DNA of 64,000 nucleotides from IMG/VR virus record IMGVR_UViG_3300029858_000005, one strand, 5' to 3'. The notes under the pieces are model-generated. The model saw only the letters and a list, made by a program, of their open reading frames with translations, did not search any database and had not been told where the DNA came from. This document shows, one piece after another, positions 1,280 to 42,900 of the stretch. The number at the start of each line of letters is the position of its first letter. Position 1 is the first letter of the stretch. The translations under genes were made by a program, and so were the position numbers. The DNA comes from a virus.

Positions 1280-1354
1280 GACTGAGTAGCTCAGTTGGAT
1301 AGAGCATCGTTTTCCTAAAACGAGGGTCGATGGGTCCGAATCCCTCCTCAGTCA
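1280..1354 (+). tRNA. tRNA-Arg (anticodon CCT)
   Basis: Acceptor GACTGAG/CTCAGTC, D arm GCTC-AGTTGGATA-GAGC, anticodon stem TCGTT/AACGA and 7-nt loop TTCCTAA (U33, CCT, A37). The T arm GATGGG-TCCGAAT-CCCTC has one bulged T. Confidence 0.75.
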
Positions 1355-1865
1355 CACTCTTTTTTAGTTCCGTTTAGTAGTTGAATTCCTCTCTGACGGC
1401 GCAAAGATAAGCCCACGACCTTATAAAGTAGGTAGTTCGGGCAGCTACAATCTTGCATCGGGAGAGGTTCGGAAAGGATTGGAGAAGTAGTTCTTTGACA
1501 TATTGATGCACAGAATAGTATGCGTGGAAAATAAGTAGCCGGAGAGCATCGATGGATGCCGTGACCTGGCGAAAAGGACGCACGACATACGAAAAACTAG
1601 TCAGTAACAGATATTACATAGACTATACTGATGAACTATACTGAAACATCAGTACAAGCAAAGGGCATAATATAGGTCTGTATCGTTTACTATGTAGTAT
1701 TCTAGTCGAAGTATGTATTATTGCCATCTTACGTGTAAGATATTTATAATATGTATGGAGTGTCATACGGAACGTCAATGCTAGCTGTATCGGGAATACG
1801 GAAACGATTAATATCGTGGCATTCACAAACGACAGAAAGTTCCATGGTTTTAGATACATAAAACA

Positions 1866-1965
1866 GCAGGGTATGGTGTAAGTGGTATTCTTGCACACCT
1901 CGCACAATAGATGATACCTCTTCTTATCGTGTGAGATAGTGGCGGTTCGATTCCGCCTCCCTGCA
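1866..1965 (+). tRNA. tRNA-like gene with oversized D loop and 23-nt anticodon loop (anticodon not assignable)
   Basis: Acceptor GCAGGG(T)/(T)CCCTGC and a canonical T arm GGCGG-TTCGATT-CCGCC. The anticodon stem CGCAC/GTGTG encloses the 23-nt loop AATAGATGATACCTCTTCTTATC. Confidence 0.55.
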
Positions 1966-2118
1966 CAAATTTTCAATTATTATTATTAGATAGTACAACG
2001 TTTATTACGAATATATAAGTCTAGCTAACTCTGAACAGAGTTAAGTCAAAGAATGAGACTTTAACACTACTTTAAAGTGGAGATTACTTCTCAATACTTT
2101 AATTAAATAACAACAAAG

Positions 2119-2207
2119 AGGAGACTGGTGTAATTGGAAGCACAGCGACAACTAGATGATACCGTTCTTATCGTCGTGAGATGGGGGTTCGAGTCCTCCG
2201 TCTCCTC
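2119..2207 (+). tRNA. tRNA-like gene with 23-nt anticodon loop (contains CTA; anticodon not assignable)
   Basis: Acceptor AGGAGAC/GTCTCCT, U8, D arm GTGT-AATTGGAA-GCAC, 5-nt variable loop and T arm GGGGG-TTCGAGT-CCTCC. The anticodon stem GCGAC/GTCGT encloses the 23-nt loop AACTAGATGATACCGTTCTTATC. Confidence 0.6.
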
Positions 2208-2248
2208 CAACATATAATTCATTGTATTCTAATTTATTCAATTAAAAA

Positions 2249-2276
2249 TGCAGCTCGTCTGTGAAGATAGGCTGCA
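2249..2276 (+). promoter_or_regulatory. tRNA-leader hairpin, loop TCGTCTGTGAAGATAG
   Basis: TGCAGC (2249-2254) pairs with GCTGCA (2271-2276) around a 16-nt loop. It ends 5 nt before the tRNA at 2282. Confidence 0.45.
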
Positions 2277-2281
2277 CACAT

Positions 2282-2354
2282 CGCAGGTTGGAGCAGTTGG
2301 TAGCTCGCTAGGCTCATGACCTAGAGGTCACAGATTCGAGTTCTGTACCTGCCA
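2282..2354 (+). tRNA. tRNA with CAT anticodon (Met; Ile2 or initiator-like cannot be excluded)
   Basis: Canonical cloverleaf: D arm GAGC/GCTC, anticodon stem CTAGG/CCTAG, loop CTCATGA and T arm ACAGA-TTCGAGT-TCTGT. There is a C1xC72 mismatch at the top of the acceptor stem. Confidence 0.8.
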
Positions 2355-2408
2355 CAAATGTTTATTTTTGAAGCTCTAAATTGTTTATATGTGAAAAGAT
2401 TGTTTCTT

Positions 2409-2438
2409 GCGTATCTGGTCTGGGAAGATAGGATACGT
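2409..2438 (+). promoter_or_regulatory. tRNA-leader hairpin, loop TGGTCTGGGAAGATAG
   Basis: GCGTATC (2409-2415) pairs with GATACGT (2432-2438, one G-U). The 16-nt loop is 14/16 identical to the loop at 2255-2270, although the stems are unrelated. Confidence 0.45.
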
Positions 2439-2473
2439 CTATTTCTTTTAGAAGGAATTATTTTTTATTTCTG

Positions 2474-2550
2474 AGGAGAGTAGCTCAGTAGTAGAGCGCC
2501 AGGGGAAGGGTCCTTGGAGGTCGATGGTGCGAATCCATCCTCTCTTCCCA
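2474..2550 (+). tRNA. tRNA-like gene with 6-bp anticodon stem and loop GAAGGGT lacking U33; encoded CCA
   Basis: Acceptor AGGAGAG/CTCTCTT, D arm GCTC-AGTAGTA-GAGC, T arm GATGG-TGCGAAT-CCATC, then C-CCA. The anticodon arm CCAGGG-GAAGGGT-CCTTGG is 19 nt rather than 17. Confidence 0.55.
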
Positions 2551-2595
2551 ATTTTCTTTCGTATTTCAAGATTTTTGATTGGTTAACTTATGTGT

Positions 2596-2667
2596 CGCCC
2601 AGTAGCTTAACTGCATAGAGCCGTGGTTCTTTCCGCGAGGTTGGGAGTTGGAGTCTCCCCTGGGCTT
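2596..2667 (+). tRNA. tRNA-like gene with 6-nt anticodon loop TTCTTT (possibly Lys-CTT-derived)
   Basis: Acceptor (C)GCCCAG/CTGGGC(T), U8, D arm GCTT-AACTGCATA-GAGC and T arm GGGAG-TTGGAGT-CTCCC. The anticodon stem CGTGG/CCGCG encloses only 6 nt, and no position-26 nucleotide is left. Confidence 0.5.
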
Positions 2668-2753
2668 CCCAAGTAGGTAAATTTCTAATTTAGCTGACAG
2701 AGGTCGGCACTTTTTCTTATAAGTCATTTATATTTTAATTTGAGTATTAATAT

Positions 2754-2777
2754 CCTCTTGCTTGTGAAAGTAGGAGG
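2754..2777 (+). promoter_or_regulatory. tRNA-leader hairpin (weaker member), loop TTGCTTGTGAAAGTA
   Basis: CCTC (2754-2757) pairs with GAGG (2774-2777). The loop resembles the other two leader loops (about 11/16). It ends 5 nt before the tRNA-like gene at 2783, the same spacing as at 2276/2282. Confidence 0.3.
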
Positions 2778-2782
2778 TACAA

Positions 2783-2854
2783 GCCACATTAGCTCAGTTG
2801 GTCAGAGCAGTCCAAGATACCGACAGGCCGCAGGTTCGAGTCCTGCATGTGGCT
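2783..2854 (+). tRNA. tRNA-like gene with truncated 15-nt anticodon arm (3-bp stem GTC/GAC, loop CAAGATACC; possibly Ile-GAT-derived)
   Basis: Perfect acceptor GCCACAT/ATGTGGC, D arm GCTC-AGTTGGTCA-GAGC and T arm GCAGG-TTCGAGT-CCTGC. Only 21 nt lie between the D and T arms. Confidence 0.55.
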
Positions 2855-3023
2855 CACTTAATTGTGAGTGCCATAAATTTACAGTTTTTGATTATCTTTG
2901 GGAGTGAGGGTGTCTATTGTCCCTCCTCCCTTTAACATTGACTTCTACTCCATCTCACAATAACCACGTGCAATCACCTCTCCTGCCTTGCGTGGTTGGC
3001 TAAACGGAGAGGTTTTACTATAG

Positions 3024-3287
3024 ATGAAAGTTATAAACATAATAAGAATCAGTAAGGAAAACATTAATGCTCTTCGAAATCTGGAATGCGTTGAAAACGT
3101 AGAACAGAACGGAAAGGACATTATTGTTCGCATTAAACCGAAATATACGGATGGTAGACTTGAAGCCAGAAAGGGTGAATATATTATTCAGTGGGGTAAC
3201 AAAATGTGGCAGAGGTATGGCTCTGATGCTATCAATATGCTTTCCAAAAATCCCGGAGCGGAGGCCGGCAAGACATGGGACGCGTAG
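3024..3287 (+). CDS. hypothetical protein
   Basis: 87-aa ORF that overlaps the next same-strand gene by 13 nt. The antisense ORFs look low-complexity. Confidence 0.5.
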   Translation: MKVINIIRISKENINALRNLECVENVEQNGKDIIVRIKPKYTDGRLEARKGEYIIQWGNKMWQRYGSDAINMLSKNPGAEAGKTWDA

Positions 3288-3739
3288 GTTCAAAGAAGTA
3301 TTACGCTCCTGACGGGAACGAATACGATTCAAGAGAGGAGTATCTGTACTTGCAGACCATCCTCGATGATCCTGGTATAAGCTGCATACACAGACAGGTA
3401 ACCATCACGGCCATCAACCCGGTATGGATGCTGAAACCAAAGCAGCTTAAAACTAAGGTCAAGTATGAGAGAAGGTCACTGCTTTACGGGCATAACTATA
3501 CTGCCGACTTCGTTTACCGGGAAGGCGAGAAGATTGTGATATGTGATGTCAAGAGCCTCTATACCTCAAAGCTCAGAGAGTTCTCGATTACAACAAAGGC
3601 TGTGGTGGCAAGACTTATCGCCCACAATAGGAAACGTCATAACGGCGAGTCTGTTGTGATATTCCGTAAGGCTATCAAGATAAAGAAGAACGAGTGGAAA
3701 ATCGTTGATTATCCACCGTCCGACTGCTATATAATATAA
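3275..3739 (+). CDS. DUF1064-like protein (putative PD-(D/E)xK-type nuclease)
   Basis: KKYYAPDGNEYDSREEYLY...Q...YTADFVY..GEKIVICDVKS matches the DUF1064 pattern as I recall it. Confidence 0.55.
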   Translation: MGRVGSKKYYAPDGNEYDSREEYLYLQTILDDPGISCIHRQVTITAINPVWMLKPKQLKTKVKYERRSLLYGHNYTADFVYREGEKIVICDVKSLYTSKLREFSITTKAVVARLIAHNRKRHNGESVVIFRKAIKIKKNEWKIVDYPPSDCYII

Positions 3740-16906: not shown

Positions 16907-18148
16907 ATGGAGAAACGAATAATTTTAGACGAACAAGATATGAATGAGTTTACAAAGATTTTCGCAAAGACAATAGAAGATGAAGCTATCAAACAGATAG
17001 AAACCCTATCTAATAGCGAGGCTTACAATAGTTGTAAAATAAGAATAATGCCAGATTGCCATGCAGGTAAAGGATGCACTATTGGCACGGTAATAGAGCT
17101 TGATAACAGAGTAGTTCCTAACACTGTTGGAGTAGATATAGGCTGCGGCATGAAAGTCGTAAGACTTGGTAAAGTTGATATTGACTTGCAGAAATTTGAT
17201 GAAGCAGTCAATAAGTTGATTCCGTCTGGTTTTAATGTCAACGAGGGAGAAGTATCAGCCTACATAAACGGATTGGTTGATGGTTGTATGTTTGGCAAAT
17301 TCCGTGCTTGGGATTGTCTTGACAGCATGGAAATAGTATATCGTTCTGTTGGAAGTCTTGGCGGTGGCAATCACTTTATTGAGTTAGATGCAAATGAAGA
17401 AGGAGAGAAGTTTCTTGTGATACATACAGGAAGTAGAAACCTTGGTGTTAGGGTATGCAACTATTACCAAAAACTTGCCTACGAGTATTGTCGTAAGAAA
17501 ATAGCTGATAAGTCTGAGGTTATTGCCAAGTTGAAAAGCGAAGGAAGAGAAAAGGAAATACAGAGTGTTATCAAGTTGTTAGGTACTAGAACCATTAGCA
17601 AGGAACTTTCTTACTTGGAAGGTGATTTGCTCAATGACTACCTCAATGATATGCGCATAGTTCAAAAATATGCTGAACAAAACAGAATGATTATCGCCAA
17701 CAGACTTGTAAATGCTTTAGGTGTAGATATTGATGCTAATTCAGATAAGTATTCTTTTACAACCATTCACAACTATATAGATACAGACAAGGGTATATTG
17801 CGAAAGGGAGCTATCAGTGCAAAAAAGGATGAGGTAGTCATTATCCCAATGAATATGCGTGATGGTTCTCTTATCTGCAAGGGAAAAGGTAACAAAGATT
17901 GGCTATGCTCTGCCCCTCATGGCGCGGGTAGATTAATGTCTCGTACACAGGCAAAGAAAGAGTTATCTATGGATTTTTACAAGAATGAAATGAATGGTAT
18001 TTATTCCACATCAGTTTGTGAAGAAACCATTGATGAAGCACCTATGGCATACAAGCCAACCGAAGAGATTGTTGAGTTAATCAAACCTACGGTTGATGTC
18101 ATTGATGTCATTAAGCCAATTTACAACTTTAAAGCAAAATCATTATGA
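16907..18148 (+). CDS. rtcB: RtcB-family RNA 3'-phosphate/5'-OH ligase
   Basis: All hallmark motifs are present: MPDCHAGKGCTIGT, VGVDIGCGM, GGGNHFIE, HTGSRNLG, TIHNY and SAPHGAGR. Confidence 0.9.
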   Translation: MEKRIILDEQDMNEFTKIFAKTIEDEAIKQIETLSNSEAYNSCKIRIMPDCHAGKGCTIGTVIELDNRVVPNTVGVDIGCGMKVVRLGKVDIDLQKFDEAVNKLIPSGFNVNEGEVSAYINGLVDGCMFGKFRAWDCLDSMEIVYRSVGSLGGGNHFIELDANEEGEKFLVIHTGSRNLGVRVCNYYQKLAYEYCRKKIADKSEVIAKLKSEGREKEIQSVIKLLGTRTISKELSYLEGDLLNDYLNDMRIVQKYAEQNRMIIANRLVNALGVDIDANSDKYSFTTIHNYIDTDKGILRKGAISAKKDEVVIIPMNMRDGSLICKGKGNKDWLCSAPHGAGRLMSRTQAKKELSMDFYKNEMNGIYSTSVCEETIDEAPMAYKPTEEIVELIKPTVDVIDVIKPIYNFKAKSL

Positions 18149-27994: not shown

Positions 27995-30900
27995 CTAATT
28001 TAATAAATTAATATTCTTGTTATCTAATCTCTTCTTGTTGCAGTCTTCCTTATCTCCACTCAATCGCAGAACCTCTGATTCAAGGAAGACCACCCGAGCC
28101 TTCAACCTGCTGACCTCATCGCCCACCTGCTCGATAGCACCGAATGCCGTTGCAATCAGCTTCGGAGACCAGTAGTTAATCTTGTAATAGCCCTTCTCGT
28201 CAGTCTCCACGATGTCCTTTAAGTGAGGGTTGCACAAGACGTGTTGGGCAATCCAACCGATAGACCTTGTGTTGTCCTTCTTCCAAGCAAAGCTGAACGT
28301 GCCACCCATTGCCTTGATGATACCCAAGTAGTCCAGCTTCCGCAAATCCTGCTTCAAGCGGATGTCAGAAGATTGATAAGCTGTAACTCCACCTTTAGCA
28401 AGAATGCTATTAGGGAAGTAAGTATTCATATAAGCGTCATAATCATATATATGACCAGTAGTACTAATTGTATATCTGTCACCATTATAGCTATATTTAG
28501 TTAAAGCTAAAGCTCTAATTTTAACAACAATACCATTACGTAAATTAGTATTATTGCTAGGGTGACTAAATACTAATCTTACATAACGATATGTATCATT
28601 ACCAACATTTACATTTAAAGGACCAACACAAATATCACATTTGTGTGCCCATCCTTTTATTATTTTAGAAACATATTCTTTATAACCACCAGTACTACTT
28701 CCAAAGTATACTTGACATTTTATATCAACTCCATTATTTACATCAATACTTATCCAACTAAGTTCTTGATATATTTCATCAGGAATCTTAACAGTAACTC
28801 TAAGTTGATTTTTCTTTATTTGAGCAAGTTTATCAGCCTCAGTATTACCAATCATATTATCAGACCCTAAAAAATAATTAAATACCCTAACATTATCATT
28901 TACAAGATTAAATCTATTTTCTGGATTACCAGGATATGTATTCCAACTAGCACCGTTATCAGTTGAATATTCTACTTGTATATTATCCTGAGGAATACCA
29001 TTAAACATATTAGTAACATTAGCTCCAATACTACCATCCCAATTTTGTAATGACGTACCATATACATTTGAATCAGAGGTTGTAAACATTGTACCTCTAG
29101 CAGTAAGCATATTGTTAACTTTAACTGGACCATTAAATGTAGCACCGCTGTTAATATCAATACTAGTAAAATGAGCATTACCATTTTGATATATATACCA
29201 ATAATTAGAACCATTATGACTACATATATCTTGAACTTTCACCCAATTACTATTATTAGCATTACCTAAATATAAATCACCACCACTACCTCCAATTCTA
29301 GCTCCAGCATCAGGAGTTATAGTTGTAATACCTGGAAATTTAAGTGTACCATTACTTCTTTTATTAGAATAATAATTAAATACAGTTCCATCGGCTATAC
29401 CTAAATATATAGCATTAGCAACAGTATCATATTTAAGACCAGCCCAATCACTATACTCCCAGTCGGCTGCTCCAAAACGAATAGCAGCACCAGTATTAAA
29501 TACTACTTGGTCTTTTATAGCTGATATACGAGCATTAGCATTTACATTATTATTTAATATTATAGCTCCGTTTTCAGAATCACTATTGTTTATATATATA
29601 GTTCCGTTAACATTACCAGTTCCATCAAAACTTTGACCCCATATCGTTCTTGCTGCCGCAAGTTTTGTTGCAGAAGCTACATTTATATTATGTATATCAG
29701 TACCGTTAAGAAGTAACTTACCATAGTCTAACCTTAATGTGTTAGCTGTTTTAATAGTCATACCAAAGTAATCAGTAATAGTAGTACTATATGCTCCAGT
29801 ATTTGGATAACGATGGTCAAATCCATACCAAGGATGTTTATTAGTACCATCACTCCAAACATCGTTCCAATTAGGAGACCAATTTATATTACCATTAAAA
29901 GTTCTACCATCAGTACCATGAAGTCCATCAACTGTATCTGCGTTACCAGCACTACTAGCATAATTAACACTAATATTACTAATACTTTTTGTAGTTCCAC
30001 CAACGGTTATACTAATTCCCTTATCAGAATTAGATAGAGCAGTAAGAAGTCCACTTGCATGGTAACCATCTACAGTGTCAGAATTGCCTGCGCTGCTAGC
30101 ATATCCATTATGCAAAGCATTATATAAACTATTTGCACCTTTTTGACTAAGACTTGTACCAGTAGAAGTTCCACTATAACTATCAGTAATTCCTCTCCAA
30201 GTATTTTGCCAAGTAGTAGAAACACCATTGATAGTAATAGTTTGACCACTTACAGAACCAGTAACAAAGTTTTTGTCATTAGTAAGTTGACTAAGTTTAG
30301 TAAGATTACCTTTATGATAAACTTCATATTCAGCATCATATTTACTAGTAGTTCTAACTACATTATTGCTAAAATATAATACTCCATTTGCTGCACGAAT
30401 ACCATCATAGTTGCCATTACTTCTACAAAAAAGAATAGCTTCTGTAGGGGAATCAGATAAATCTTGAGTATAAACGCTATTAACTCCAATAATATCAGAA
30501 TTTCGCATATTTATACCATAAGCATTATTAGAATAATATCTATCATTAGCCATGTTAAGAATACTAACATCTTGATGACTAGTAAGATAACCTTGACTTT
30601 TAACCCAAGATTGCGTAGCATACCCATTAAGAGATTGATGACTAGTAAGATAAGTTCCTAAATCTACAGCAGCACCTCCACTAGCTGCAATAGTTTTAGT
30701 AACACCGTTAATCTTTACACTATGAGTATGACTAGTTGCCGACTTACCACTAAGAAGTGAATCTACACTACTTTTGGTATAATAGTTAGCAAGACTTTGG
30801 TGAGAAGTTAAAAATGTAGCACCTTTAGTAAATGTAATACCCTTTCCGCTTTTAGATACAGACGTGATAGCATTCCCACTTCCACTTACAGATATTGCAT

Positions 30901-33900
30901 TAACGTAACCATCAAGTGACTGATGACTAGTTAAGAACGTACTACCTTTAACTACGCTGATAGTAGTACCATCCTTGGTGACAGACGTAACCGCATTACC
31001 GCTACCGCTGACAGAAATAGCAGTAGCACTACCACCTTCCAAGCTGGAGATACGAGAATCAAGAGCCTTAATAGAGTAGGCAGAAGCTATCTCAGACAGC
31101 GATTCTGATGTAAGCTTCAAGGCATTTGAATAACTCTTCACACTGCCGTTCAAGCCGCCACCACCGCCCGTGGTAGATGCTCCTGCTCCGTATGCCGTGA
31201 TACCGCCTGTGGCATAGAGATTACCATCAATTTTGATAGCCTTGTTTGTGGAATCATACGTGAGCTTAATGCCATGGAAGGAGATTGTACCCTCGAATGT
31301 AGCATCGCCCGATACGCCAAGTTTAGAGAATGGAGCGTTTGGCTTCAAAGACACAAGGTCGGCAACGCTCGTTCCTGCACTTCCTTCCTTCCAAGTCGGC
31401 TCGAAGAAGATGAGGTATGCGCCAAGATTCTTTTCGCTGATGATAAACGATGTCGGGTCTGCGTGAACCTTTCCGCTCACATCCCACCAGATAGCACCAT
31501 TGGCAAGATAACCAGAGCCATCGAAGCGGATGAGGGAGGTTGCAGGGGTAAGATTTCCGCTATTATAGTCCTTATCCACCATCTGACCGCCCCACCATGT
31601 TGCGATACTCTTCTTACCTCTGTTCGGGTCTATTGCTCCGTTGATACCGCTCTGAACGTTTCCGTCTCCGTCTCTCAGCGCAAGGAGCGTTGTCATTACA
31701 AGACCACCGTCAATATCTGTAGTCTGACCGAGCGCATCCTTGAGATACTTGTAACCTGCGAGGTCTGTGATATTCTGCTTCAAGTCACCATATATCTTGC
31801 TAGTGATATAGGCGTTTGCCAAGCCAAGTTTGTCATAGAATGCGCTGTATGTGGACTGAAAGTTGGTGAACTTCGTTCCCACGGCTGAGACGATAGTAGC
31901 CTTGCCGTTTGTATCAGACGCATTGTATCTTGCTGATATATCTGAGAGATACGTAACGAGTTCCGTCTTGGCAGTCGTGAGGGTAGCAAAAGCGGTGTTG
32001 AGGTCGGTGAGTTCCTTGGTGTTCGTCAGCACCTCTGCTTCCTTCACCTCATTGTACGACTTCTGTGCTGCCGCAAAATCATCCTCAAGTCGCTTAGAAT
32101 CCTGCGCCATTGCCGCAATCTCGGAAGGCTCCAGGTAGCCATCGGTAACATAATTATCGAATTCCTTCTTGTTATCAGTGACCGTCTTTCCGAGGTTCGT
32201 AATGTCTGTCTGTGCGGTCTGTGCCGCCTTCTGAGCATTTTCTGCCGCCTTTTTGGCTGCGTTGGCAACGGTATCATCGGTGTATTTAGATGCTTTAATC
32301 CAATCACCGATGGCGAACTGAGAACCAGCCGCTTTGTTAGTCTGACAGCGCAATACCTCATTCTTGTAGGTACTGCCGTCAGAAGGATAAGTGGCATTAA
32401 CCCATATATCGCCAACCTGATAAGGTGTCGTAGGCTGAACGCTGAACACCTTCATTTTCCCGTTTGCGGTCTCCTGTGCCATTCTTGCATCGGAAAGGGC
32501 TTTGGCGATGTCGGTATCTGTAATTATAGTCCACTTATAGGTGTTGCTATCCTTGGCAAAGCGGTATGCCTTGCCCGTCTTGTTGTCGTAGTAAAGGTCG
32601 CCAAGATGGATTTCTTTATCCTTATCGGTCTTCCAACTGATGGCTGGGGCATTCTCCAAGGTAGGAACACCATCATAGAACCACGTTTCGATAGCACCAT
32701 CCACCTGATTCTGCAAGTCGGCAATCTTCTTGAAATACTGAGACAATTCCTTGCCATCCACAGTGGATTTAGCGGAAATCTTAGCCTTAACAGACATTTG
32801 CTTAGTGCTGCTATCATATCTGATATAAGAGCTGCCCTCATAGCCATTCTCCTTTGTAGGTCTATCACCTACATACATATCACCATAGACGTTGAAGAAT
32901 GCCTTGTTATTCTGCTTATTCACACCATATTCCACGTACTCCCTATTGGCAAAGGAATAGCTGTTGATGCCGTGATAGAGGCTGATGGATGGCGAATAGG
33001 TATCTACCGCCGAGAAGATAAGGCAGTTCTGACGTTCTACATCGGTTCTGTTACCGCACTGATTGAGTACATCACCTTTAGCAGGAACATCGCTTGCCGT
33101 AGCGCAATCGGTATCAGAGAGGTCGATATAATGATATTTCTTTCCTTCCAACTCTACTGGTTCCTCGTCACGACCGATTACCAATCGCCAATAGAAGTGA
33201 TTACCAGCCTTGTGATAAGTACCCTTGCGAACGTTGAATGATTCCGAGCGCACTTGGTCGTTAACCGCGAAGTCGTTATCTACCTCATCACCATCCTGCT
33301 CTGCTAAGAAATAGCAACGATAAGCCTTCTGTGACACATTATTGTATGTCACAGTAACCTCTTCTACCTTATGAGCCACCACGCCGCCAGCAGGAGAGAT
33401 TATCTCCTTACCACCGATGGTGGATGTTTTATTGATAACCAGCTCCTCGAAGATAGCCTTCATTCTTACCTCCAAGTAATCTGTGATGAGGTGCGAACGA
33501 CCTTCTGCATCGGGAGTCCACGACCCTCCACCGACAAGCAATCCCTGCAAGAACTTCTGCACCTTTTCCCAAGTGATGGTGCCGTTGGCTATGTCATCGT
33601 TTATCTTTGAGATGAAGTGCTTACTTCCCTCTGTTGCAATCTGGCCTTTGACTTGTGTAGTTGTCAAGCCTGCACCTGTTCCGCCATTTCCACTTTGGAG
33701 CGACGATATCTGCTGTTGGATCTTCTGGATAGTTCCAACCTCCTTATCCTCGCGAAGAGTTATATCGTAGGTAGGAATCTTACCATCTTCTTCCTTGATT
33801 GTGAGCTGATCTATGGATATTACACCGCCAATTCTGAGGTCAGTATCCTCAAACTCCATCAAGTCTCCGGCTTTGAGCGTATCATGAAGACTCTTGATAA

Positions 33901-35872
33901 CTCCTGTAGTATCCTTTTCAGCAAGATCATGCTGCCTTGCCATGAAAATCTCATCAACCTTAGGCTGATAGACGTACCTTGTGTAGTCGTTCTTGTCAAT
34001 GAATGCTATGGCGTATTTAAGGAGCTTCAGAGACGCAGCATTGACATACGAATCAGGAAGTGTGATGCCGGTAAGAACGAAATGGTCGCCTTTCTTGATA
34101 GGGTAGTCCTTGTATGGAAACCAAAGCTCAAGAGCGTCGTCCTTTACTCTTTCAATAGTAAGCCTCCATCTTCCATCAATCTTGGTTGAGGATGCTACCT
34201 TGAATGTTCGTCCGCCACACATACCATCCTTCATCGAGATGGAGAAGTCGTCATCCTTTAAGTCGTTGATATCAAAATCGATAGCCTTTTTAAGATAGAT
34301 ATCAACATTCTTTACGGTTTCATTATCGCCAAATCTTCCGTCATCATCAGGAGCCACACCCTCATCAATCTCATCAACACGTACGCCACCGATTTCCATC
34401 TCCTCGATAGTAGGGTAGATTTCAATAACTCCATTTGTCTTATCATCTGTTTCAAAGAACTGCGATGCAGAACGAAGACCAATCTGCTCGATGTTGATAG
34501 AATCGATGTATGGCCTGTGCGGATCTGTGGAGAATTTATGCTGTCTCCCGGTAGGATTCACGTACTTCTTCTCTTTATCCGTGAGTGTGTTATAGAAATC
34601 ACTCAGCGATACATGAGGGAATCCAGGCAACATAAGTCTGTTGATGGACATGTTGTTCGGAAGATTCTTTGCGTACTCCTTCATGGACGAAGGAACATTT
34701 TTCTTGTTGAGGCCCGATGTGATATACATCTTTGTGTTTCCGGCCTCGACCTGCGCAATAAACGCATCAAGCTTCTCCTTTGACTCCTCATCTCCGGTGT
34801 CAGTCTGTGTTCCCTTCAGCTCAGAATAGAATCTACATTTTTTAGAGCCGTATCCCTGTGTTACATAACCGGTAATCTCAGTCTTGAAATCAAATGTAAC
34901 CTTAAGTACCCAACCGGAAGACTGCTCGCCAGTTTCTGGAGAAACAATATACTTTCTCGGATTCTTGAAATATGTCTCTATATAATCGAGGTCCAGTTCA
35001 AGTTCAACATTCGTGCTGGCTCCGACGACTTTCGTGATGTTCGCCACGTACTTGACACCGAGGTCAGCATAGTAGTGGGAAGGAAGATTCTTCTCGGAAC
35101 CATAGGCTCTCAATCTCGTAACGACACTCTGGTCGGAATCAGCGTTCTGAACAATCTCATATAATCCATTACCGAGGCCATACTTGAAGATATGGCTTGC
35201 CTGTATTCCGGTAGTACCGACATAGATGTTTCTTCCTCTGACGATGAAGTTTATGTCCCACTTCTCGTTCACAAGCGCAAGGGCCTGCCAACAGGTCTGC
35301 GAATCCACTGTAATGGACATCGATTCGATGACGTTATCGTCGGTTTTCTCACCATAAACCGACAACCACTCACTTTCAAGGGCTCCACGCTGAACGGAAC
35401 GGTCCTTGTTTCGGGAGTAAATCTTCCAAAGACCTGCACCAATCTGCTCGTTTAAGCATGCCTGGATTCTGTCTAGCAAATCATCCAAAGTCTGTACATA
35501 GAATGGAAATTTCGGCAGGGCAGTGTAGTGAAGCTCGTTATCGTTCAATACCACATCGAGGAACTCTGCCCTGGCAAGCTCATCCTGCAATGCATTGAAC
35601 TTTACGCTGTCATATACGAAGCCCTCACCGTAGGTGTCAGGTCTTGCCTGCTTATCTTTGCCCGGCTCGTAGTTGAGCTCAAACCGCTCGCCACGATAGA
35701 CAATATAGTCGCCTATCTGAAAGTTGATAGGCACTTCATGCTTGAAGTTGATAGTCAAAAAACACTCACCCATCCAGGAATCAGAGTACTCCAATCCATG
35801 AACGGTTATCTGCTCTCCGTTAACGTCTGTCAGCTTCGAGCCATCCTTATGATAAATATTCCAAGCGCTCAT
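27995..35872 (-). CDS. giant tail-associated (Tal-like N-terminus) / tail-fibre protein with C-terminal S74 intramolecular-chaperone domain
   Basis: 2625-aa uninterrupted ORF directly downstream of the Dit-like and tape-measure genes. It has repeats SVSGSGNA(V/I)TSV..K...FLTSHQSL and a C-terminal ...YQSSDIRLKQD... autoproteolysis motif. Confidence 0.85.
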   Translation of the reverse strand: MSAWNIYHKDGSKLTDVNGEQITVHGLEYSDSWMGECFLTINFKHEVPINFQIGDYIVYRGERFELNYEPGKDKQARPDTYGEGFVYDSVKFNALQDELARAEFLDVVLNDNELHYTALPKFPFYVQTLDDLLDRIQACLNEQIGAGLWKIYSRNKDRSVQRGALESEWLSVYGEKTDDNVIESMSITVDSQTCWQALALVNEKWDINFIVRGRNIYVGTTGIQASHIFKYGLGNGLYEIVQNADSDQSVVTRLRAYGSEKNLPSHYYADLGVKYVANITKVVGASTNVELELDLDYIETYFKNPRKYIVSPETGEQSSGWVLKVTFDFKTEITGYVTQGYGSKKCRFYSELKGTQTDTGDEESKEKLDAFIAQVEAGNTKMYITSGLNKKNVPSSMKEYAKNLPNNMSINRLMLPGFPHVSLSDFYNTLTDKEKKYVNPTGRQHKFSTDPHRPYIDSINIEQIGLRSASQFFETDDKTNGVIEIYPTIEEMEIGGVRVDEIDEGVAPDDDGRFGDNETVKNVDIYLKKAIDFDINDLKDDDFSISMKDGMCGGRTFKVASSTKIDGRWRLTIERVKDDALELWFPYKDYPIKKGDHFVLTGITLPDSYVNAASLKLLKYAIAFIDKNDYTRYVYQPKVDEIFMARQHDLAEKDTTGVIKSLHDTLKAGDLMEFEDTDLRIGGVISIDQLTIKEEDGKIPTYDITLREDKEVGTIQKIQQQISSLQSGNGGTGAGLTTTQVKGQIATEGSKHFISKINDDIANGTITWEKVQKFLQGLLVGGGSWTPDAEGRSHLITDYLEVRMKAIFEELVINKTSTIGGKEIISPAGGVVAHKVEEVTVTYNNVSQKAYRCYFLAEQDGDEVDNDFAVNDQVRSESFNVRKGTYHKAGNHFYWRLVIGRDEEPVELEGKKYHYIDLSDTDCATASDVPAKGDVLNQCGNRTDVERQNCLIFSAVDTYSPSISLYHGINSYSFANREYVEYGVNKQNNKAFFNVYGDMYVGDRPTKENGYEGSSYIRYDSSTKQMSVKAKISAKSTVDGKELSQYFKKIADLQNQVDGAIETWFYDGVPTLENAPAISWKTDKDKEIHLGDLYYDNKTGKAYRFAKDSNTYKWTIITDTDIAKALSDARMAQETANGKMKVFSVQPTTPYQVGDIWVNATYPSDGSTYKNEVLRCQTNKAAGSQFAIGDWIKASKYTDDTVANAAKKAAENAQKAAQTAQTDITNLGKTVTDNKKEFDNYVTDGYLEPSEIAAMAQDSKRLEDDFAAAQKSYNEVKEAEVLTNTKELTDLNTAFATLTTAKTELVTYLSDISARYNASDTNGKATIVSAVGTKFTNFQSTYSAFYDKLGLANAYITSKIYGDLKQNITDLAGYKYLKDALGQTTDIDGGLVMTTLLALRDGDGNVQSGINGAIDPNRGKKSIATWWGGQMVDKDYNSGNLTPATSLIRFDGSGYLANGAIWWDVSGKVHADPTSFIISEKNLGAYLIFFEPTWKEGSAGTSVADLVSLKPNAPFSKLGVSGDATFEGTISFHGIKLTYDSTNKAIKIDGNLYATGGITAYGAGASTTGGGGGLNGSVKSYSNALKLTSESLSEIASAYSIKALDSRISSLEGGSATAISVSGSGNAVTSVTKDGTTISVVKGSTFLTSHQSLDGYVNAISVSGSGNAITSVSKSGKGITFTKGATFLTSHQSLANYYTKSSVDSLLSGKSATSHTHSVKINGVTKTIAASGGAAVDLGTYLTSHQSLNGYATQSWVKSQGYLTSHQDVSILNMANDRYYSNNAYGINMRNSDIIGVNSVYTQDLSDSPTEAILFCRSNGNYDGIRAANGVLYFSNNVVRTTSKYDAEYEVYHKGNLTKLSQLTNDKNFVTGSVSGQTITINGVSTTWQNTWRGITDSYSGTSTGTSLSQKGANSLYNALHNGYASSAGNSDTVDGYHASGLLTALSNSDKGISITVGGTTKSISNISVNYASSAGNADTVDGLHGTDGRTFNGNINWSPNWNDVWSDGTNKHPWYGFDHRYPNTGAYSTTITDYFGMTIKTANTLRLDYGKLLLNGTDIHNINVASATKLAAARTIWGQSFDGTGNVNGTIYINNSDSENGAIILNNNVNANARISAIKDQVVFNTGAAIRFGAADWEYSDWAGLKYDTVANAIYLGIADGTVFNYYSNKRSNGTLKFPGITTITPDAGARIGGSGGDLYLGNANNSNWVKVQDICSHNGSNYWYIYQNGNAHFTSIDINSGATFNGPVKVNNMLTARGTMFTTSDSNVYGTSLQNWDGSIGANVTNMFNGIPQDNIQVEYSTDNGASWNTYPGNPENRFNLVNDNVRVFNYFLGSDNMIGNTEADKLAQIKKNQLRVTVKIPDEIYQELSWISIDVNNGVDIKCQVYFGSSTGGYKEYVSKIIKGWAHKCDICVGPLNVNVGNDTYRYVRLVFSHPSNNTNLRNGIVVKIRALALTKYSYNGDRYTISTTGHIYDYDAYMNTYFPNSILAKGGVTAYQSSDIRLKQDLRKLDYLGIIKAMGGTFSFAWKKDNTRSIGWIAQHVLCNPHLKDIVETDEKGYYKINYWSPKLIATAFGAIEQVGDEVSRLKARVVFLESEVLRLSGDKEDCNKKRLDNKNINLLN

Positions 35873-36964: not shown

Positions 36965-39900
36965 TTATTTCATTTTTAAAGATTTCGTACCATTGATAAC
37001 TCTGTTGAAGTTATCGTTATACTCAATGAAAATTTTCTCGATTCTCTCTGCTGCATCTGCATTGCGCAAGGTATTCCTAGCAATAAGGTTGAGCTGCGTG
37101 AGCTGAGATTTTGAAATCTCGCTCATCTCAGGAAGGAACTTGCCCTGCATTTCCCTGATTACAGAGACATCAAGTCTAATCGCGTTAAGATAGGATGCAA
37201 AAAGATCACCTGTCTCCTCGGTAATGCCTTTTATCGAGTTGGTCAAAGAGGAACTTCCGTTTTCTCTCAAATCAAGTCCCTTTTCCTTTAGAGCATCGAA
37301 GATACCGGTTAACTGAGGAACTACATTTTCGCCAACTTGGTAGAGCTTGTCAGCAAAATCGTCCATGTCGGTCTCATCAAGTTTACCCTTTTCATCAAGG
37401 ATACCTGTAAGCCATTCGAGAGGTTTTTCAAGTGCCTTCTCCATGATTTTCTGAGATACAATATTCTTCGTAACTTCGCGAACCATTTCCTTGACCTTAT
37501 TCTTGTAAGCCTCAACCGCATCTTCCCCCTTAGTCCATGCGCTTACAACAGTATCAGTCAGCTGATTTCCCCAACTCTTCATATCGATAGAGTAAACGTC
37601 TTTAAGGAAGTCCTGTGCGAACGTCTTAATCTGCAACTGCATCTCCTTGATTTGCTGGTCGTAGTCAGCAATCTTATCCTTGTCCGTCTTTTTCTTATCC
37701 TCCTCAGCTTGTCTCTGCTTTCTCAACTCGTCTTCCTGAGCGTGGAGTAGGGCGAGCTGATCTGCGTATGCGGAAGGATTCGTCTCTGTCTTCATTACAG
37801 CGTCATAAGTCTCCTTGCTGTAGTGACTGAAGTTGTGACCTCCAAAGAAATTCTTTCCAATATCTGTCTTAGAAAAAGAATCCCAAGCCTTATAGTCATT
37901 CTTGACATCGTTGAGCTTTTTATTCGCATCGGAAGACCTATTGTAAGAATAGATTCCACCGAGTGTCTTTTCAATAACGGAACTGATATTGCTAGATAGG
38001 TTCTTCAATTCATTCAGCTGTCTCTCTGCAAGCTTTATCTGTCTGTCGAGCTTGGCATCATGAGCCTTTGCAAACGCCTTAATAGGAGAGGTAAATATGC
38101 CAGTGACACCGGCAAGGATTCCACCAACGTTGCCGGACTCCGCGCTTGTTACCACCTTTGACAGTGAACTTGACATGCCGGAGAATGTCTCGAAGAACGC
38201 AGAAGCGTCCTGCCATCCATCAGACTCAGTGTCAGCTCCGAGAAGGGAAGCAGTCTCTTTGATGTCATTGAATGCTTCACTCATTCCCTGGACATTCTGG
38301 TCGATAATACTTACTACGTTAGCAAACTTATCAAGAGACTCCTTTGCTTTTGTTCCATCCTTAAACAGAATCTCAGCAGCTTTCATCATAGCCTTTCCGC
38401 TGTCAATCATGCTGTCACCACGCTTGATGAAGTTTTCGTCTCCCATTTTGAGACCAAGTTCACGAACCTTCTTTCCTTCAGCAATTTTACTTGCTGCGAT
38501 GGTCATCTGCTCGCTGGCATCAGAAATCTTCTGCTCAGCCATTCCCTTCAGGCCACCATTGAGGAAAGTCTTCTTTGGACTCGTCAGCTTCGATAACTGC
38601 TCATCAAGCTGCTTGATTTCCTTGGCGTACTCTCTAGCATCAATGGCTCCGCTTTGTAGAGCCTCATTGATATTCTGCCTGATTCTTGCTCCGATAGTCT
38701 GAGCCTTATCCATACCGAGAGACACGATGGCTCCGTAGAAGTTGAGATAATCAGAAGAGTTCTTGAACTTGTCAAGCTTAACCTGACCAATCTCCTTGTC
38801 TCTCTGAATCTCATATCTCGCCTTGATGCCAGGATCATTCGTCTTGCTGATAAGCTCGTTGTATCTCTCCCTTATCTTCAAGATTTTATCCTCATAATCT
38901 TCTGTCTTCTCAATGATGTCGGCGGCATCTTGCAAAGACTTAACATAATTACCACGGAGGAGTTCTGTAATTTTTTTCCACTCTTCGTACTGATTTGGCT
39001 GCTTAAGCTTTTTCTCAGCTTCTCCGTCAGTCATGCTGAGAGAATCCTGAAGATTGAATATCTCATGGTAGTGAGCGTAATACTCGTCCATAAGAGATTG
39101 AGTCTTGTCATCCATCTGGAAAGCGTCAATCCATGCGGACTCAGCAAAGAACTTGCTGCCTGTCTTTTCGAGAAGACTCTTGTACAAATCCCAACGTTCT
39201 GACAGCTTGTTCATGGACTCATTGAAGTCAGCTGCCTTTCTCTCATACTCCTTCTTGTCCTTCTCGTCGAAGAGCCACTCTGCAACCTCACGATAGATGG
39301 AAGTTTGGAACTTCTTTCTCTCGGTGGTGTTTATACTGAATCCTTCAAGGAGAGAATGGACAGCCTTCTGATAGTCGTCAAGATTAAGACCGGTAACCTC
39401 CGGGAAGAGATTATAAGTCTTCTTCTTTGCCTCTTCATCAGACATTATGCTCTTGTACTTCTGATACATCTGCCTTGCAGACTTCAAGCTGCTAAGGCGT
39501 TCCTGCAAGCGTTTGAGCTCAGTATCTTCTTCGCGACCATTCTTGTTTTTACCCTTACCGAAGTGACCAGTAACCTTATTCTTTCCTACATCAAGACTTA
39601 TTCCAGACTGAGCCGCTATTGCTTCAAGCATTCGCTGCTCCCTTACGTATGGTTGCCTGTCGCCTGCATTCTTTGCATTGTCGTTCTCGTCACGGACCTC
39701 CTTATATCTCTTTCTTACAGCCTCTCCGAATGAAGTCCATCCGTTACTATTTCCTCCATTCAGATTGTGGAGATACTCGGCCATTTCCTTCTGCCAGAAA
39801 CCACCTGTTCCTCCTTTAAGCTTTCCTGCCTTTTGTAGCTTGCCGAAGACTTTTCTTTCGATAGTTCCTACTTTGTTAGGGTTCTTCCAAACTTTTGGAC

Positions 39901-42900
39901 CAGTATTGCCTTCTTGTGGCTTTGCTTTTCCTATGTTCAAAATAGCCATAGCTACGCTTTGAAGTCTCGCTACAAGACCAGGAACTTTCTTGTTCGCCTC
40001 AGATAACATTTGGTCAAGCATGGTTCTGAACTTATCCGGGTGCTGTTTGCACCACCTTGAGAACTCAACCATGTCCATATTCCTACTCTTGGCCATATAT
40101 TCGAGATATTTAGGAATATCGTCGGTAGCTATCTCGCCGAAATTCGCTCCAAAATGCCGAAGGTCGTCTTCCAAATTTTCAAGACTTCCCTTCATGTCTT
40201 TGTTTCCGTTGCTTACTTTGTCAACAAAGTGACGCCAGGTTGCAGCCCCTTTTCCGCCAGTTGTATATAGCGTGTATAGTTTTTCCTCGAATGTCATACC
40301 TGCCGCCCTTGCTCCAAGCATCGAGTTTGCCACTTTCTCCATAGAGCTTTTTGTGGAATCGCCGAATTTCTCCATCTTCATCTGGAGCTGAGCAAGGTTC
40401 CCTGCGACGTCGTTTATGTTCTCGTCAATATCGTCTTGACCGATACCAGTCCATTGGCCGAACCAACTTGCTCCACCTGCGAATCCAGCACCAGAAGCCT
40501 TCTTTGCCTTTGCGAAGTTCTCTCCTTCGCTTGGAGTGAAATTATTCTCATTCCTAGCGTCAATGATTTTCTGTTTTAAGATATCATACTCCTTGCCGAG
40601 GTCATCAGTACTATCTATCTGTTCCTTAATGGAGTCTGTATAGAGTCCGCTCTGTTTAAGGACATCAGTCATCTTGTCTACCTGTTGCTGAAGAGCCTCG
40701 CCAGTGCCTTTATTGCCAACTTCCGATAACGTATCAGATAGTGTCTTTACTGTTGTTTTTGCAGTCTCGTTTATCCTATCGGTATCCTGTTTGATGCTGT
40801 CCTTGAACTGACTATATGCCGAATACAGAGCCGTTCCTATAGTAATACCAAGTGTTGCAATATTCCATCCTGAGAAGAATCCTCCAAGCTTTCCTTTTGC
40901 CTGGTTAACAGCAAGCGACATTCTTGCCCTTGTTCCTTCTTTAGTTATAAGCTCGGACTCCTTTGCGCTTATCATACCCATAAGGCGAAGCTGTTCGATC
41001 ATCTCCTTGGATATTAGACCCTCGCGGAAAGCTTTTTGCATCTTCAACGCGCTAAGTCTTCCCTCTAGTGCAGCTTGCTCTACAGCATTTCTGGTAATAA
41101 TCTTGCTATTCAGCATTCCCTGGTAGTCAGCAATATTCTGCCTCATTATTTCCTGGGTTATCTTACCCTCAATGAGAGCTTGCTGCTGCTCTACGGCGAA
41201 AGTTCTTAGCTTTACCTGTTGTTCAGCACGCAAAGCTGCAAGGTTACTGCTTATACCAACTCTTGAAGCAATGGCTGTCGCACCCTTACGCAAAGCATAC
41301 ATAGCACCGAATGCAAGTGCTGCGTTAGAGACCTTATCCAAAGCCAAAACCAAATCTGTTGTTCTATTAATAAGGAATGAGAAAGTACCTCCGACAACAC
41401 TCTTACCTTCTGCGAACTTTCCAAGCATAATGTCCCAGGCATCAATGAGCTTATTCCATCGACCAAGCAATGTTTCGGACAGAACGAACTGCATGTTGTA
41501 GAACTGGCCTCCCTCGTCTGTCATTTTCCAAAGCACTTTCTGGACATCCTCAAAGCTAACCTGTCTAGCACTAATCATCTTCTTGACATCTGCCTGGGTA
41601 TAATTGTTCCTTCCGTTCTTTCCTTCTGAGTTATAAAGCTCAGTGATTCTCTGCAAAAGAGGAAGACCGGCGTAAGCAAACTGGCGCAACTCCTTACCAT
41701 CGAGCCAAGAACGAGCCTTTACCTGGCCGAATGCCAAGCCCAATCGTCCGAAGTCTACGCCAAGACCAGATGCAATATCCGCAAGTCGTTTTGTGGTATC
41801 ATACAAGTCATTTGCTTCGACTCCGAATGCAGCCAGCTGCTTTACATCTCGGTTCAGCTCTCCAAACTTGAATGGAGACTGCAACGCAAGCTGCTGAGTC
41901 TGAGCGAATAATTCGTCCGCCTTCTGCACATCTCCAAGGATAGAACGCAACGCAACATGCTGCTGAACAATCTCACCACCGGTCTGTACGATTGAATTAA
42001 AGAATTGCTGTGCGCCAAAGACAATACCTCCCTGTAAGAAGAGAGACTTGATGTCTCCGACTATGGATTGCATCTTCTTCGCTTCAGCGTTTGCTCCGGC
42101 GAATGCTGAAGCAAGGTCGTTTCGTGCTCTTGCAGCAGACTGAGCAATTTCCTGCTGACGCTTCTGTTCAAGCTCGATACCTTTCTGAACCTCTTGGTTT
42201 ACTGCTTTCTGATCTTGAAGAACCCTAGAAGCTAATGTGGTATCGTGGCCACTACCGATATTGCCAAGCATACCGAGGCTATCCTTCCAGTTCTCTGAAT
42301 TAAGTCTTCCCTTGATATTTATAAGGGCTCTCATTAAAGAAAGAAGTCTGTTAATCTCGGCTTCAGCTTTACTAACATCTGCTCCGACAGAAATTCCTCG
42401 GCTGTATTCAGAGCGAAGCTGGCGAACCTTATTGCCGAGAGAATCATACCGACGCTCCGTGTTCTTCAAATCATTCTGGCGTTGTCTCTCTGCCTCTTTT
42501 GCCTCGCGTGCTGCGTCCTTTATAACCTTTGCATAAGTATTTGCTTTATCTATAGCATTAAGATACCCGGAACTCTTTACGATATCAGTTGCTGTGAGTC
42601 CTGTGATAGGATGAATACCTCTGTTATTCCTGATCTGTTCTAACTCAGTTCTGTATTTAGACAGCTCTGACAACGACTGGCGTATGTTGTTCGTTGAATC
42701 GATGCCAAACAACTGTATTCCTTCACCATGGCGTTTGTTGATTTCGTCAATAATAGAAGATAACTTATAAAGTTCTCTCTCTGCCTTGTTTGCCTCAGTG
42801 GAAACACTGTTAGGGAATATGTTGAATCCAGCACCTTCCTTAGACACCTCTCCAAGTATGCGGCCTATTTTGTACAGCCCGTCCTGGACAGACTCCAACT

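Follow-up and report, generated by a model that had tools for sequence, protein, structure and literature searches.

Oversized transfer RNA (tRNA) genes with unexplained conserved inserts have been reported in phages once, in the Lak megaphages of Prevotella, whose conserved tRNA introns were described as 'enigmatic' (Devoto et al. 2019, Nat Microbiol, PMC6784885). Phage tRNAs are also selected by host anticodon nucleases (PMC10264068), as exemplified by the T5 tRNA-Lys versus PARIS (PMC11464382) and by retron evasion (PMC11555353). Phage tRNA genes are now viewed as weapons against host tRNA-cleaving defences, the known cases being working tRNAs with point changes in the loop. The present analysis concerns two tRNA-like genes, named here gene 1 and gene 2, in a 64,000-nucleotide (nt) stretch of viral DNA, the IMG/VR record IMGVR_UViG_3300029858_000005, which is referred to at its full length as the window. 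Both genes carry a 23-nt loop in place of the usual anticodon loop, and a 16-nt insert in this loop is their most constrained part. In the literature, no report was found of a short, invariant insert without a bulge-helix-bulge on a non-decoding tRNA body across common temperate gut phages.

Gene 2 (91 nt, positions 2118-2208, plus strand), recognised from its sequence, ARAGORN and covariation, is a near-textbook cloverleaf apart from the loop. Its acceptor stem (2119-2125/2200-2206) is made 8 base pairs (bp) long by G2118 (G-1) and C2207 (C73) and is followed by U8 and G9; the D stem (2128-2131/2140-2143) has an 8-nt loop with GG and is followed by A26. The anticodon stem consists of GCGAC (2145-2149) and GTCGT (2173-2177), including one G.U pair, and leads through a variable loop of 5 nt (2178-2182) to the T arm (2183-2199) with the loop TTCGAGT. 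The enclosed 23-nt loop, read from the sequence, is AACTAGATGATACCGTTCTTATC (2150-2172, plus strand; AACUAGAUGAUACCGUUCUUAUC as RNA) and contains CUA, the former anticodon, at 2152-2154 and UUCUUAU at 2165-2171; GAUA at 2158-2161 can pair with UAUC at 2169-2172. The G-1:C73 pair is encoded in every gene-2 homologue except that of L111 (L-numbers are labels of the viral contigs compared with the window), and CCA is encoded in some of them. This pair is the bacterial histidine identity set and is independent of the anticodon. The remainder of a tRNA-His is missing, the loop being without GUG and the body Gln-like.

Gene 1 (100 nt, 1866-1965, plus strand), found from the sequence and by ARAGORN run with introns, is without the G-1:C73 pair. 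The acceptor stem of 7 bp (1866-1872/1958-1964) has U.U at 7:66 and the discriminator A1965, the T arm (1941-1957) is normal, and the D arm is abnormally long (1876-1896), with a stem of 6-7 bp possible (1876-1882/1890-1896). Its anticodon stem, CGCAC (1901-1905) with GTGTG (1929-1933), contains one G.U pair, is extendable to 7 bp (1899-1905/1929-1935) and closes the 23-nt loop AATAGATGATACCTCTTCTTATC (1906-1928, plus strand; AAUAGAUGAUACCUCUUCUUAUC as RNA), again read from the sequence, in which GAUA (1913-1916) is able to pair with UAUC (1925-1928). Both anticodon stems and both loops had been placed at these positions in an earlier sequence-only reading of the window, and these assignments were confirmed from the sequence.

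The same reading had called the two genes paralogous while regarding them as dissimilar outside the insert. The paralogy stands: the bodies are 68% identical, where comparisons with other tRNAs gave 52-65% (mostly 52-60%), and the loops are 88% identical (21/24). The supposed dissimilarity was wrong: the D arm TGGTGTAA.TGG..GCACA and the segment GTGAGAT after the anticodon stem are common to both genes. Because the body identity is raised, they are whole-gene paralogues and not unrelated tRNAs sharing an insert. Related phages carry a canonical tRNA-Gln(UUG) that agrees with these genes in the D arm (UGGUGUAA..GG.AGCAC) and in the stretch following the anticodon stem. With standard numbering, which follows from a D loop of 8 nt and a stem of 5 bp, the loop begins A32 A33 C34 U35 N36 R37, and the triplet 34-36 is CUA in the window and CUG, a Gln anticodon, or CUU in other lineages. 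The genes evidently derive from a tRNA-Gln-like ancestor and bear the insert just 3' of the ancestral anticodon CUN, U32 U33 of the ancestor having been replaced by A A.

A search of metagenomic phage contigs for the loop motif, proposed earlier as a check, recovered the same tRNA-like genes many times. The pattern TAGATGATACC-N0-4-TTCTTATC is present in 86 IMG/VR contigs, nearly all of them human-gut contigs of 45-94 kb, and all but 4 of the matches sit inside these genes; a relaxed pattern gave 22 further viral contigs, which brings the family to more than 100. In 24 distinct gene-2 homologues, 95.5% of the alignment cells form standard pairs and 12/26 pairs are changed on both sides (pair 2-94 is GC in 24/24 only through the alignment of L111). 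None of 500 shuffles matched the observed pairing and covariation, sliding of the pairing partners reduces the pairing to 30-62%, and RNAalifold independently returns the same cloverleaf. Compensatory changes occur in the acceptor, T and anticodon stems, and the gene 1 homologue in L028 shows one in the acceptor, where GCAGGG->GCATGG is accompanied by CCCTGC->CCATGC. The stem closing the long loop is found in five compensated versions (GCGAC/GUCGU, GCGGC/GCCGU, (U/C)CAUAC/GUAUGG, CUAUAC/GUAUGG and CCUAC/GUAGG), and it measures 5 bp in gene 2 of the window, whereas CAUAC-type homologues have 6 bp and gene 1 can reach 7 bp. Covarying stems, the T loop TTCGA and GG in the D loop are all present as in canonical tRNA, and this covariation indicates that the cloverleaf is under selection.

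The loop is constrained still more strictly than the body. In the homologues selected by motif, 20/25 loop columns are invariant versus 20/69 body columns (Fisher p = 1.3e-5); the loops, 23-25 nt long, are identical at 20-23 of 23 positions, with bodies down to 58-62% identity. This first set was fetched by the loop motif, and the retrieval was repeated in two less biased ways. When the D arm and T loop alone were used, the loop proved to be kept in all 20 distinct family members; when only GATACC was fixed, AACU and UUCUUAUC were kept in all 23 variants, save single U22C and C23U changes. Moreover, the neighbour of gene 1 in phages with the order Asn-gene1-gene2-Met-Gln, which was retrieved without reference to its own loop, has a loop 21/23 identical on a body of about 60% identity. 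The loop of gene 1 is identical in about 18 contigs. Variation is found at positions 5 (A/G/U), 6 (G; A in L424 and L450) and 8 (U/A) and in a spacer of 1-3 nt after ACC (G, A, UC, GU or GAU). Judging from these alignments, conservation is stronger in the insert than in the tRNA body, and this contrast does not stem from the way the homologues were retrieved, in agreement with the earlier notion of a conserved 16-nt insert in the anticodon loop.

It is less clear what structure, if any, the loop adopts. GAUA (loop positions 9-12) and UAUC (20-23) are able to form a 4-bp helix on the 3' strand of the stem, which would leave AACUNRAW as an 8-nt 5' bulge and place the length variation in a hairpin loop of 7-9 nt. 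The hairpin suggested in the sequence-only reading holds insofar as these segments can pair and are invariant; it finds no support in covariation, the pair columns being invariant bar one G.U, and is energetically marginal (about -0.2 kcal/mol versus the open loop). Its supposed extension in gene 2, GATGATA/TATCGTC, has to be abandoned, as it would form at the expense of the anticodon stem, and other variants do not preserve it. An alternative helix, 5-8/16-19, is supported just as weakly as GAUA/UAUC, and an H-type pseudoknot joining the two (5-8/16-19 plus 9-12/20-23) was rejected as sterically impossible, its linkers being of zero nt. The safe statement would be that the primary sequence is the conserved feature, which therefore points to protein recognition or a tertiary contact and not to a simple hairpin.

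In our opinion, genes 1 and 2 may be tRNA-Gln-derived non-decoding mimics, whose rebuilt anticodon arm serves as a sequence-specific ligand, probably in the phage-host tRNA conflict; we hold this reading tentatively and rate it at somewhat below an even chance. The geometry of a decoder is lacking: no register provides U33, the stem length is inconstant, the D stem of gene 1 has 6-7 bp, and the Rfam model RF00005 rejects both genes. A decoder tRNA needs a fixed anticodon-to-elbow distance. The genes would no longer be decoders, and their products would be tRNA-shaped non-coding RNAs. The helix of the acceptor and T arm, the T loop and the D-loop GG are retained, and therefore RNase P, RNase Z and the CCA-adding enzyme should still process the transcripts; the gene 2 RNA, with its G-1:C73 pair, might be charged by histidyl-tRNA synthetase regardless of the anticodon. 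The rebuilt arm would comprise a stem of 5-7 bp, the old CUN exposed in an 8-nt 5' segment A-A-C-U-N-R-A-W with no U33 turn, and the invariant module GAUACC-(1-3 nt)-UUCUUAUC, in which GAUA and UAUC could close a short hairpin that stacks on the stem's 3' strand. This module is a putative sequence-specific binding site. The RNA would serve as bait, or as a competing ligand, for a factor that recognises the anticodon arms of tRNAs, and would work alongside the phage RtcB repair ligase. The most plausible candidates for this factor are a defence nuclease of the host directed at tRNA and an enzyme that handles tRNAs. The role of bait or ligand is favoured because phage tRNAs are shaped by anticodon nucleases and because RtcB and a loop-aberrant array occur in one genome. 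Among the three options listed earlier, a decoy or a new tRNA-derived non-coding RNA fits better than maturation by cutting and religation with the phage RtcB, and none of the three has been demonstrated.

RtcB joins 3'-phosphate or 2',3'-cyclic phosphate ends to 5'-OH ends. Its gene, postulated earlier, lies at 16907-18148 on the plus strand (Pfam PF01139, E = 6.9e-64; PHROG 1075, E = 1.6e-131) and encodes the sole RNA-repair or splicing enzyme recognised in the window; the connection of this ligase to the tRNA-like genes is one that we infer. Its homologues, with 94-99% identity, were found in at least 129 viral contigs.

Several observations weigh against a bait or ligand directed at a host defence. 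RtcB and the motif do not strictly co-occur, most of the best 80 of the 129 RtcB contigs being absent from the motif lists, and the idea of strict co-occurrence was accordingly dropped as unsupported. An arms race with a defence nuclease would more likely make the loop diversify, and the invariant loop speaks for a conserved partner and not a fast-evolving one. The GAUA/UAUC hairpin of the proposed arm shows no covariation, as noted above. UUCUUAU looks like a perfect Lys(CUU) anticodon loop with all variation 5' of it, which also fits an insert placed 5' of a working loop. Finally, the window contains no antisense target for the loop: the best duplex, at -20.5 kcal/mol, is inside the shuffled range of -19.8 to -25.3 kcal/mol, and this candidate was rejected.

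A rather unlikely explanation takes the genes for intron-containing pre-tRNAs: a hypothetical endonuclease, generating 2',3'-cyclic phosphate and 5'-OH termini, would recognise the conserved block and remove 14-16 nt, and phage or host RtcB would seal the exons, the conceivable products having either the loop UUCUUAU (anticodon CUU) closed by A.C or the loop AACUNGC. The insert does have the size of a short tRNA intron and adjoins the ancestral anticodon in the 37/38 region, the genome encodes a ligase suited to such ends, and Lak megaphages, with the same host genus, have conserved 'enigmatic' tRNA introns (PMC6784885). The intron mode of ARAGORN, with 14 nt removed, gives Lys(CUU) with a canonical U33/A37 loop; the places that vary in nature (the spacer and positions 5, 6 and 8) all fall in the removable part, UUCUUAUC being invariant; and the C23->U change in L028 converts the closing A.C into A-U. 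A bulge-helix-bulge, however, which consists of two 3-nt bulges separated by a 4-bp helix, with flanking helices, at the splice sites, could not be found: an exhaustive scan for the 3-4-3 motif with flanking helices in both genes gave none that leaves a tRNA, and an archaeal intron of this kind was rejected. Enumeration from the sequence demonstrates that every 16-nt excision leaves A33 or C33 and never U33. The CUU product needs the added A.C pair, a mismatch that lengthens the stem to 6 bp (gene 2), 7 bp (CAUAC-type) or 8 bp (gene 1), and the unspliced stem already has 5, 6 or 7 bp across the homologues. The G-1:C73 acceptor fits neither Lys nor Gln, and decoding would therefore mistranslate. 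Neither EndA-like or HEPN-like nucleases nor other RNA endonucleases could be recognised in a scan covering about 48 ORFs of the window (open reading frames; Pfam/PHROGs) and the precomputed Pfam matches of the 20-kb sister-contig flanks, about 5 kb of the phage and the host genome lying outside this range. Two dedicated searches gave no insert-free allele. Recoding of stop codons is not needed in the window, where ORFs are long under the standard code, 31 ORFs end in TAG and reading TAG as sense gains little; an amber suppressor for a recoded phage was discarded, and the earlier remarks that U33 is absent (A33 stands in the loop) and that TAG suppression is unnecessary are borne out. Of the earlier comparison with archaeal/eukaryotic-type introns, the size and the place near 37/38 survive, whereas the bulge-helix-bulge and a U33 product are missing and the stem length varies, so that a classical spliced tRNA intron of this type fails on structure and is at best weakly supported. 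An unlikely variant is a protein-dependent cutting and resealing, akin to splicing, of a short insert defined by its sequence in phages of bacterial hosts, in which an endonuclease recognising GAUACC..UUCUUAUC cuts and RtcB seals; such a step would give bacteria or phages their own equivalent of Ire1/RtcB splicing or of the tRNA splicing of archaea and eukaryotes and could hold the tRNA inert until infection or shield it from anticodon nucleases.

The proposal that the genes are ordinary type-II tRNAs, in which the variable arm is long and the anticodon loop normal, and were mis-folded in the sequence-only reading, rests on the default call of ARAGORN. Without introns, ARAGORN calls gene 2 only, as 'Ser(act)' (2119-2208, 90 nt), in a fold with 3/5 anticodon-stem pairs and an unpaired 'variable arm'; ACU is not used as a Ser anticodon, and gene 1 receives no call in this default mode. 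The stem that covaries is the one closing the 23-nt loop (GCGAC/GUCGU, GCGGC/GCCGU, CAUAC/GUAUG and CCUAC/GUAGG), and on this covariation the type-II fold, named earlier as a possible refutation, may be regarded as already refuted, with almost no chance left to it. The intron mode, recommended as another check, calls both genes and gives mutually inconsistent solutions: gene 1 is reported as 'Ala(cgc)' with an intron of 23 nt, gene 2 as 'Lys(ctt)' with one of 14 nt. Another explanation, to which we give a small probability, is that the genes are decaying or selfish relics of a tRNA-Gln gene broken by a small insertion or an anticodon-loop duplication, with young copies hitchhiking in a recombining array. 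Neighbouring array tRNAs have plainly defective loops of 5-9 nt, and chimeras exist in the array (L026 has one whose 5' portion comes from gene 2 and whose 3' end comes from the 2474-type gene described below). A duplication would also fit the similarity of both AACUGAA, the first seven loop bases in L424, and UUCUUAU to UUCUGAU, the loop of E. coli tRNA-Gln2. Nevertheless, a neutral relic loop should diverge first, as in the neighbour genes, whereas here the bodies, at 58-62% identity, carry many compensatory stem changes and the loop is still kept at 20-23 of 23 positions; paralogues differing in almost every stem retain the same block, and the retrievals unbiased by the loop agree. Relic status is unlikely because the body diverges while the loop stays fixed. 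The same conservation of a single-stranded sequence without structural covariation, on a tRNA-like scaffold with intact processing determinants, would suit a small regulatory RNA whose body gives stability and processing and whose exposed 23-nt loop pairs with a conserved host or phage RNA. The chance of this is slim: no complementary site above chance exists in the 64-kb window, and position 5 and the spacer are free to vary, which is unusual for a seed region.

A number of other candidates were tried and rejected. The tRNA model RF00005 misses both genes even at E <= 10, and gene 2 has a weak match to the Rfam model of selenocysteine tRNA (tRNA-Sec, RF01852; 23.8 bits versus a gathering score of 47), because its acceptor stem has 8 bp; the match is below threshold and consists in this acceptor only, the 6-bp D stem, long variable arm and UCA anticodon being absent. 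A mini-ORF resembling that of transfer-messenger RNA, AUG AUA CCG UUC UUA UCG UCG UGA in gene 2 with an in-frame counterpart in gene 1, was treated as a coincidence; on reading the sequences, its AUG is lost in the GAAGAUACC variants and its frame in the variants with +1-nt and some with +2-nt insertions. The sequences do not fit, on inspection, the K-turn or box C/D, the hammerhead core and Ire1-type CNGNNGN loops. Mimicry of the 790 loop of 16S rRNA (AGAUACC) amounts to a 7-nt match, and about 4-5 such rRNA matches are expected by chance, according to an estimate. The insert of 16 nt, to which Rfam gives no match, is not a group I intron.

The phage is a temperate gut phage of the Prevotella/Segatella type, of about 89 kb. 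It is regarded as temperate and as found integrated because two tyrosine integrases are encoded about 10 kb upstream of the window start (L222 38-1057 and 6917-8095, from the sister contigs) and the sister contig L223 (1-8152) continues into bacterial capsule/polysaccharide genes. Sister contigs were binned with metagenome-assembled genomes of Segatella copri and Prevotella. The portal protein is 41% identical to the Bacteroides LoVEphage portal, and an annotated phage collection contained no DNA match to the phage of the window.

Gene 1 stands on a 512-bp cassette (1595-2107, plus strand), delimited by blastn of L222 against the window: L222, from a 96%-identical phage, is without the cassette and has 144 unrelated bases in that place. 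The cassette flanks match those in the 'Asn' lineage, and gene 1 passes on this cassette from one phage lineage to another while its loop stays the same. A sigma-70-like promoter match (1721-1750, 11/12 positions) is present in the cassette; Bacteroidota promoters differ from that consensus.

Both genes belong to a tRNA array (1280-2855, plus strand), which was established by tRNA finders and from the sequence. Its other members, all on the plus strand, include the canonical Arg(CCU) at 1280-1355 and Met(CAU) at 2282-2355, a tRNA with a 9-nt anticodon loop and G-1:C73 at 2474-2550 (2473 with G-1), one with a 6-nt anticodon loop at 2596-2669, and one with a 4-bp anticodon stem and the loop AAGAUAC at 2783-2855. 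The last three represent families whose bodies are conserved and whose anticodon loops differ in sequence and length (5-9 nt) among close relatives (L001-L135). Examples of such variable loops are CCAGG-GGAAG[NN]UC-CUUGG and CGUGG-UUCUUU / AAUCAG / UCCAU-CCGCG, and the 2783-type has GUCC-AAGAUAC-CGAC versus UUUGUAC in canonical Thr. One slot of the array holds a canonical or an aberrant tRNA depending on the phage. Gene 2 and the gene at 2474 both encode the His-type pair G-1:C73, have similar acceptor stems (GAGGAGAC and GAGGAGAG) and are fused in the L026 chimera mentioned above. The 9-mer AAGAUACCG occurs both in the loop region of the 2783-type (CC-AAGAUAC-CGAC) and in the insert that gene 2 has in its GAAGAUACC variants (L010, L012 and L113), and UUCUU is common to the insert and the 2596-type loop. 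The insert may have originated by recombination or duplication among the anticodon arms of the array. A diversity-generating retroelement was rejected as the source of the variable loops, the nearby reverse transcriptase being of the UG27 defence type and no template/variable repeat pair having been found.

Other, unrelated viral contigs were also noticed to have tRNA genes in which a Gln-type D arm is combined with an anticodon arm that is likewise enlarged but differs in sequence. L145 (1613-1699) has a loop of 23-25 nt with an internal hairpin, L201 (9883-9971) has a fully paired arm of about 15 bp, and the loops in L219 and L141 are 19 and 13 nt long, respectively. Enlarged anticodon arms may be recurrent in phage tRNA-like genes.

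The surroundings of the array contain several further features. The Ant protein, encoded just upstream of it, is indexed in 424 assembly blocks. The first ORF after it (3275-3739) has a borderline match to DUF1064 (24.8 bits, cutoff 24.7), which we take to be a member of the PD-(D/E)XK nuclease group, and no match in PDB or PHROG. A reverse transcriptase of the UG27 class, which is of a defence type (PADLOC E = 1.3e-224), is encoded at L225 15492-19919, about 5.5-10 kb past the 3' end of the window. Next come 1.3 kb of non-coding DNA with inverted repeats inside it and then an RTas337-type associated protein (E = 1.2e-113). This locus is a prophage-borne DRT (defence-associated reverse transcriptase) system and not a diversity-generating retroelement, because no template/variable repeat pair was found. 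In L225 (10026-20154), a motif of about 45 nt (TTAACCAA...N...AATTATGA) is repeated directly upstream of several start codons; this gene block may use it in common as a promoter or as a signal for the start of translation. The structural region of the window contains giant ORFs on the minus strand, at 27995-35872 (2625 amino acids) and 36965-43174 (2069 amino acids).

A widespread family of temperate gut phages appears, then, to keep a tRNA body and to exchange its decoding loop for an invariant 16-nt module. If the RNAs act as decoys or ligands, they would represent a new class of tRNA-mimicking anti-defence RNA, and the conserved loop would be a handle for pulling down the partner. If they are spliced, this would be the first short tRNA intron pathway other than group I in the bacterial world and would also account for the 'enigmatic introns' of the Prevotella megaphages. 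On either reading, standard tRNA finders miss or misname such genes.

Summarizing the comparison with known systems, no introns other than those of group I are known to be established in the tRNA genes of bacteria or their phages. Such introns share the anticodon-loop site, but are longer than 200 nt and have a catalytic core, in contrast to the 16-nt insert considered here. Y RNAs of the YrlA type with tRNA-like domains are reportedly encoded beside Ro60 and RtcB (Chen et al. 2014, RNA). They are said to be non-decoding tRNA mimics as well, handled by tRNA enzymes and linked to RtcB in the genome, but also to be permuted, to end on the anticodon side with a Ro60-binding helix and to need Ro60; the genes here are not permuted. 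No TROVE-domain (Ro60) protein was present among the window ORFs scanned, and Rfam gave no Y RNA match. Protein-spliced archaeal/eukaryal introns (EndA/Sen with RtcB or Trl1; reviewed in PMC4090602) resemble the present case in the short insert by the anticodon and the RtcB-family ligase in the genome, whereas here there is no bulge-helix-bulge, no recognised endonuclease and no canonical excision product, and the host is bacterial.

The Lak introns are similar in the host genus, the oversized tRNA genes, the anticodon-loop insert of identical sequence across cohorts, the lack of a known splicing mechanism and the lack of an Rfam match. The Lak inserts, however, have 79-114 nt and interrupt, at 37/38, tRNAs that are canonical in other respects (Tyr, Phe, Thr and Gly), one of them being predicted to encode a tRNA (PMC6784885), while here the insert has 16 nt, the residual loop is non-canonical (A32 A33) and the stem length is variable. 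Moreover, the present genes are carried by an unrelated temperate phage of about 89 kb, and Lak alleles exist with and without the insert, whereas no empty allele was found here. Phage tRNAs that escape nucleases are comparable in the array with altered anticodon loops, the accompanying RNA-repair functions and tRNA-directed immunity as a plausible selective agent. Those tRNAs keep the 7-nt loop, still decode and carry substitutions, whereas the 16-nt insertion described here removes the decoding geometry, and therefore any role of these RNAs would be that of a decoy or ligand and not of a replacement tRNA.

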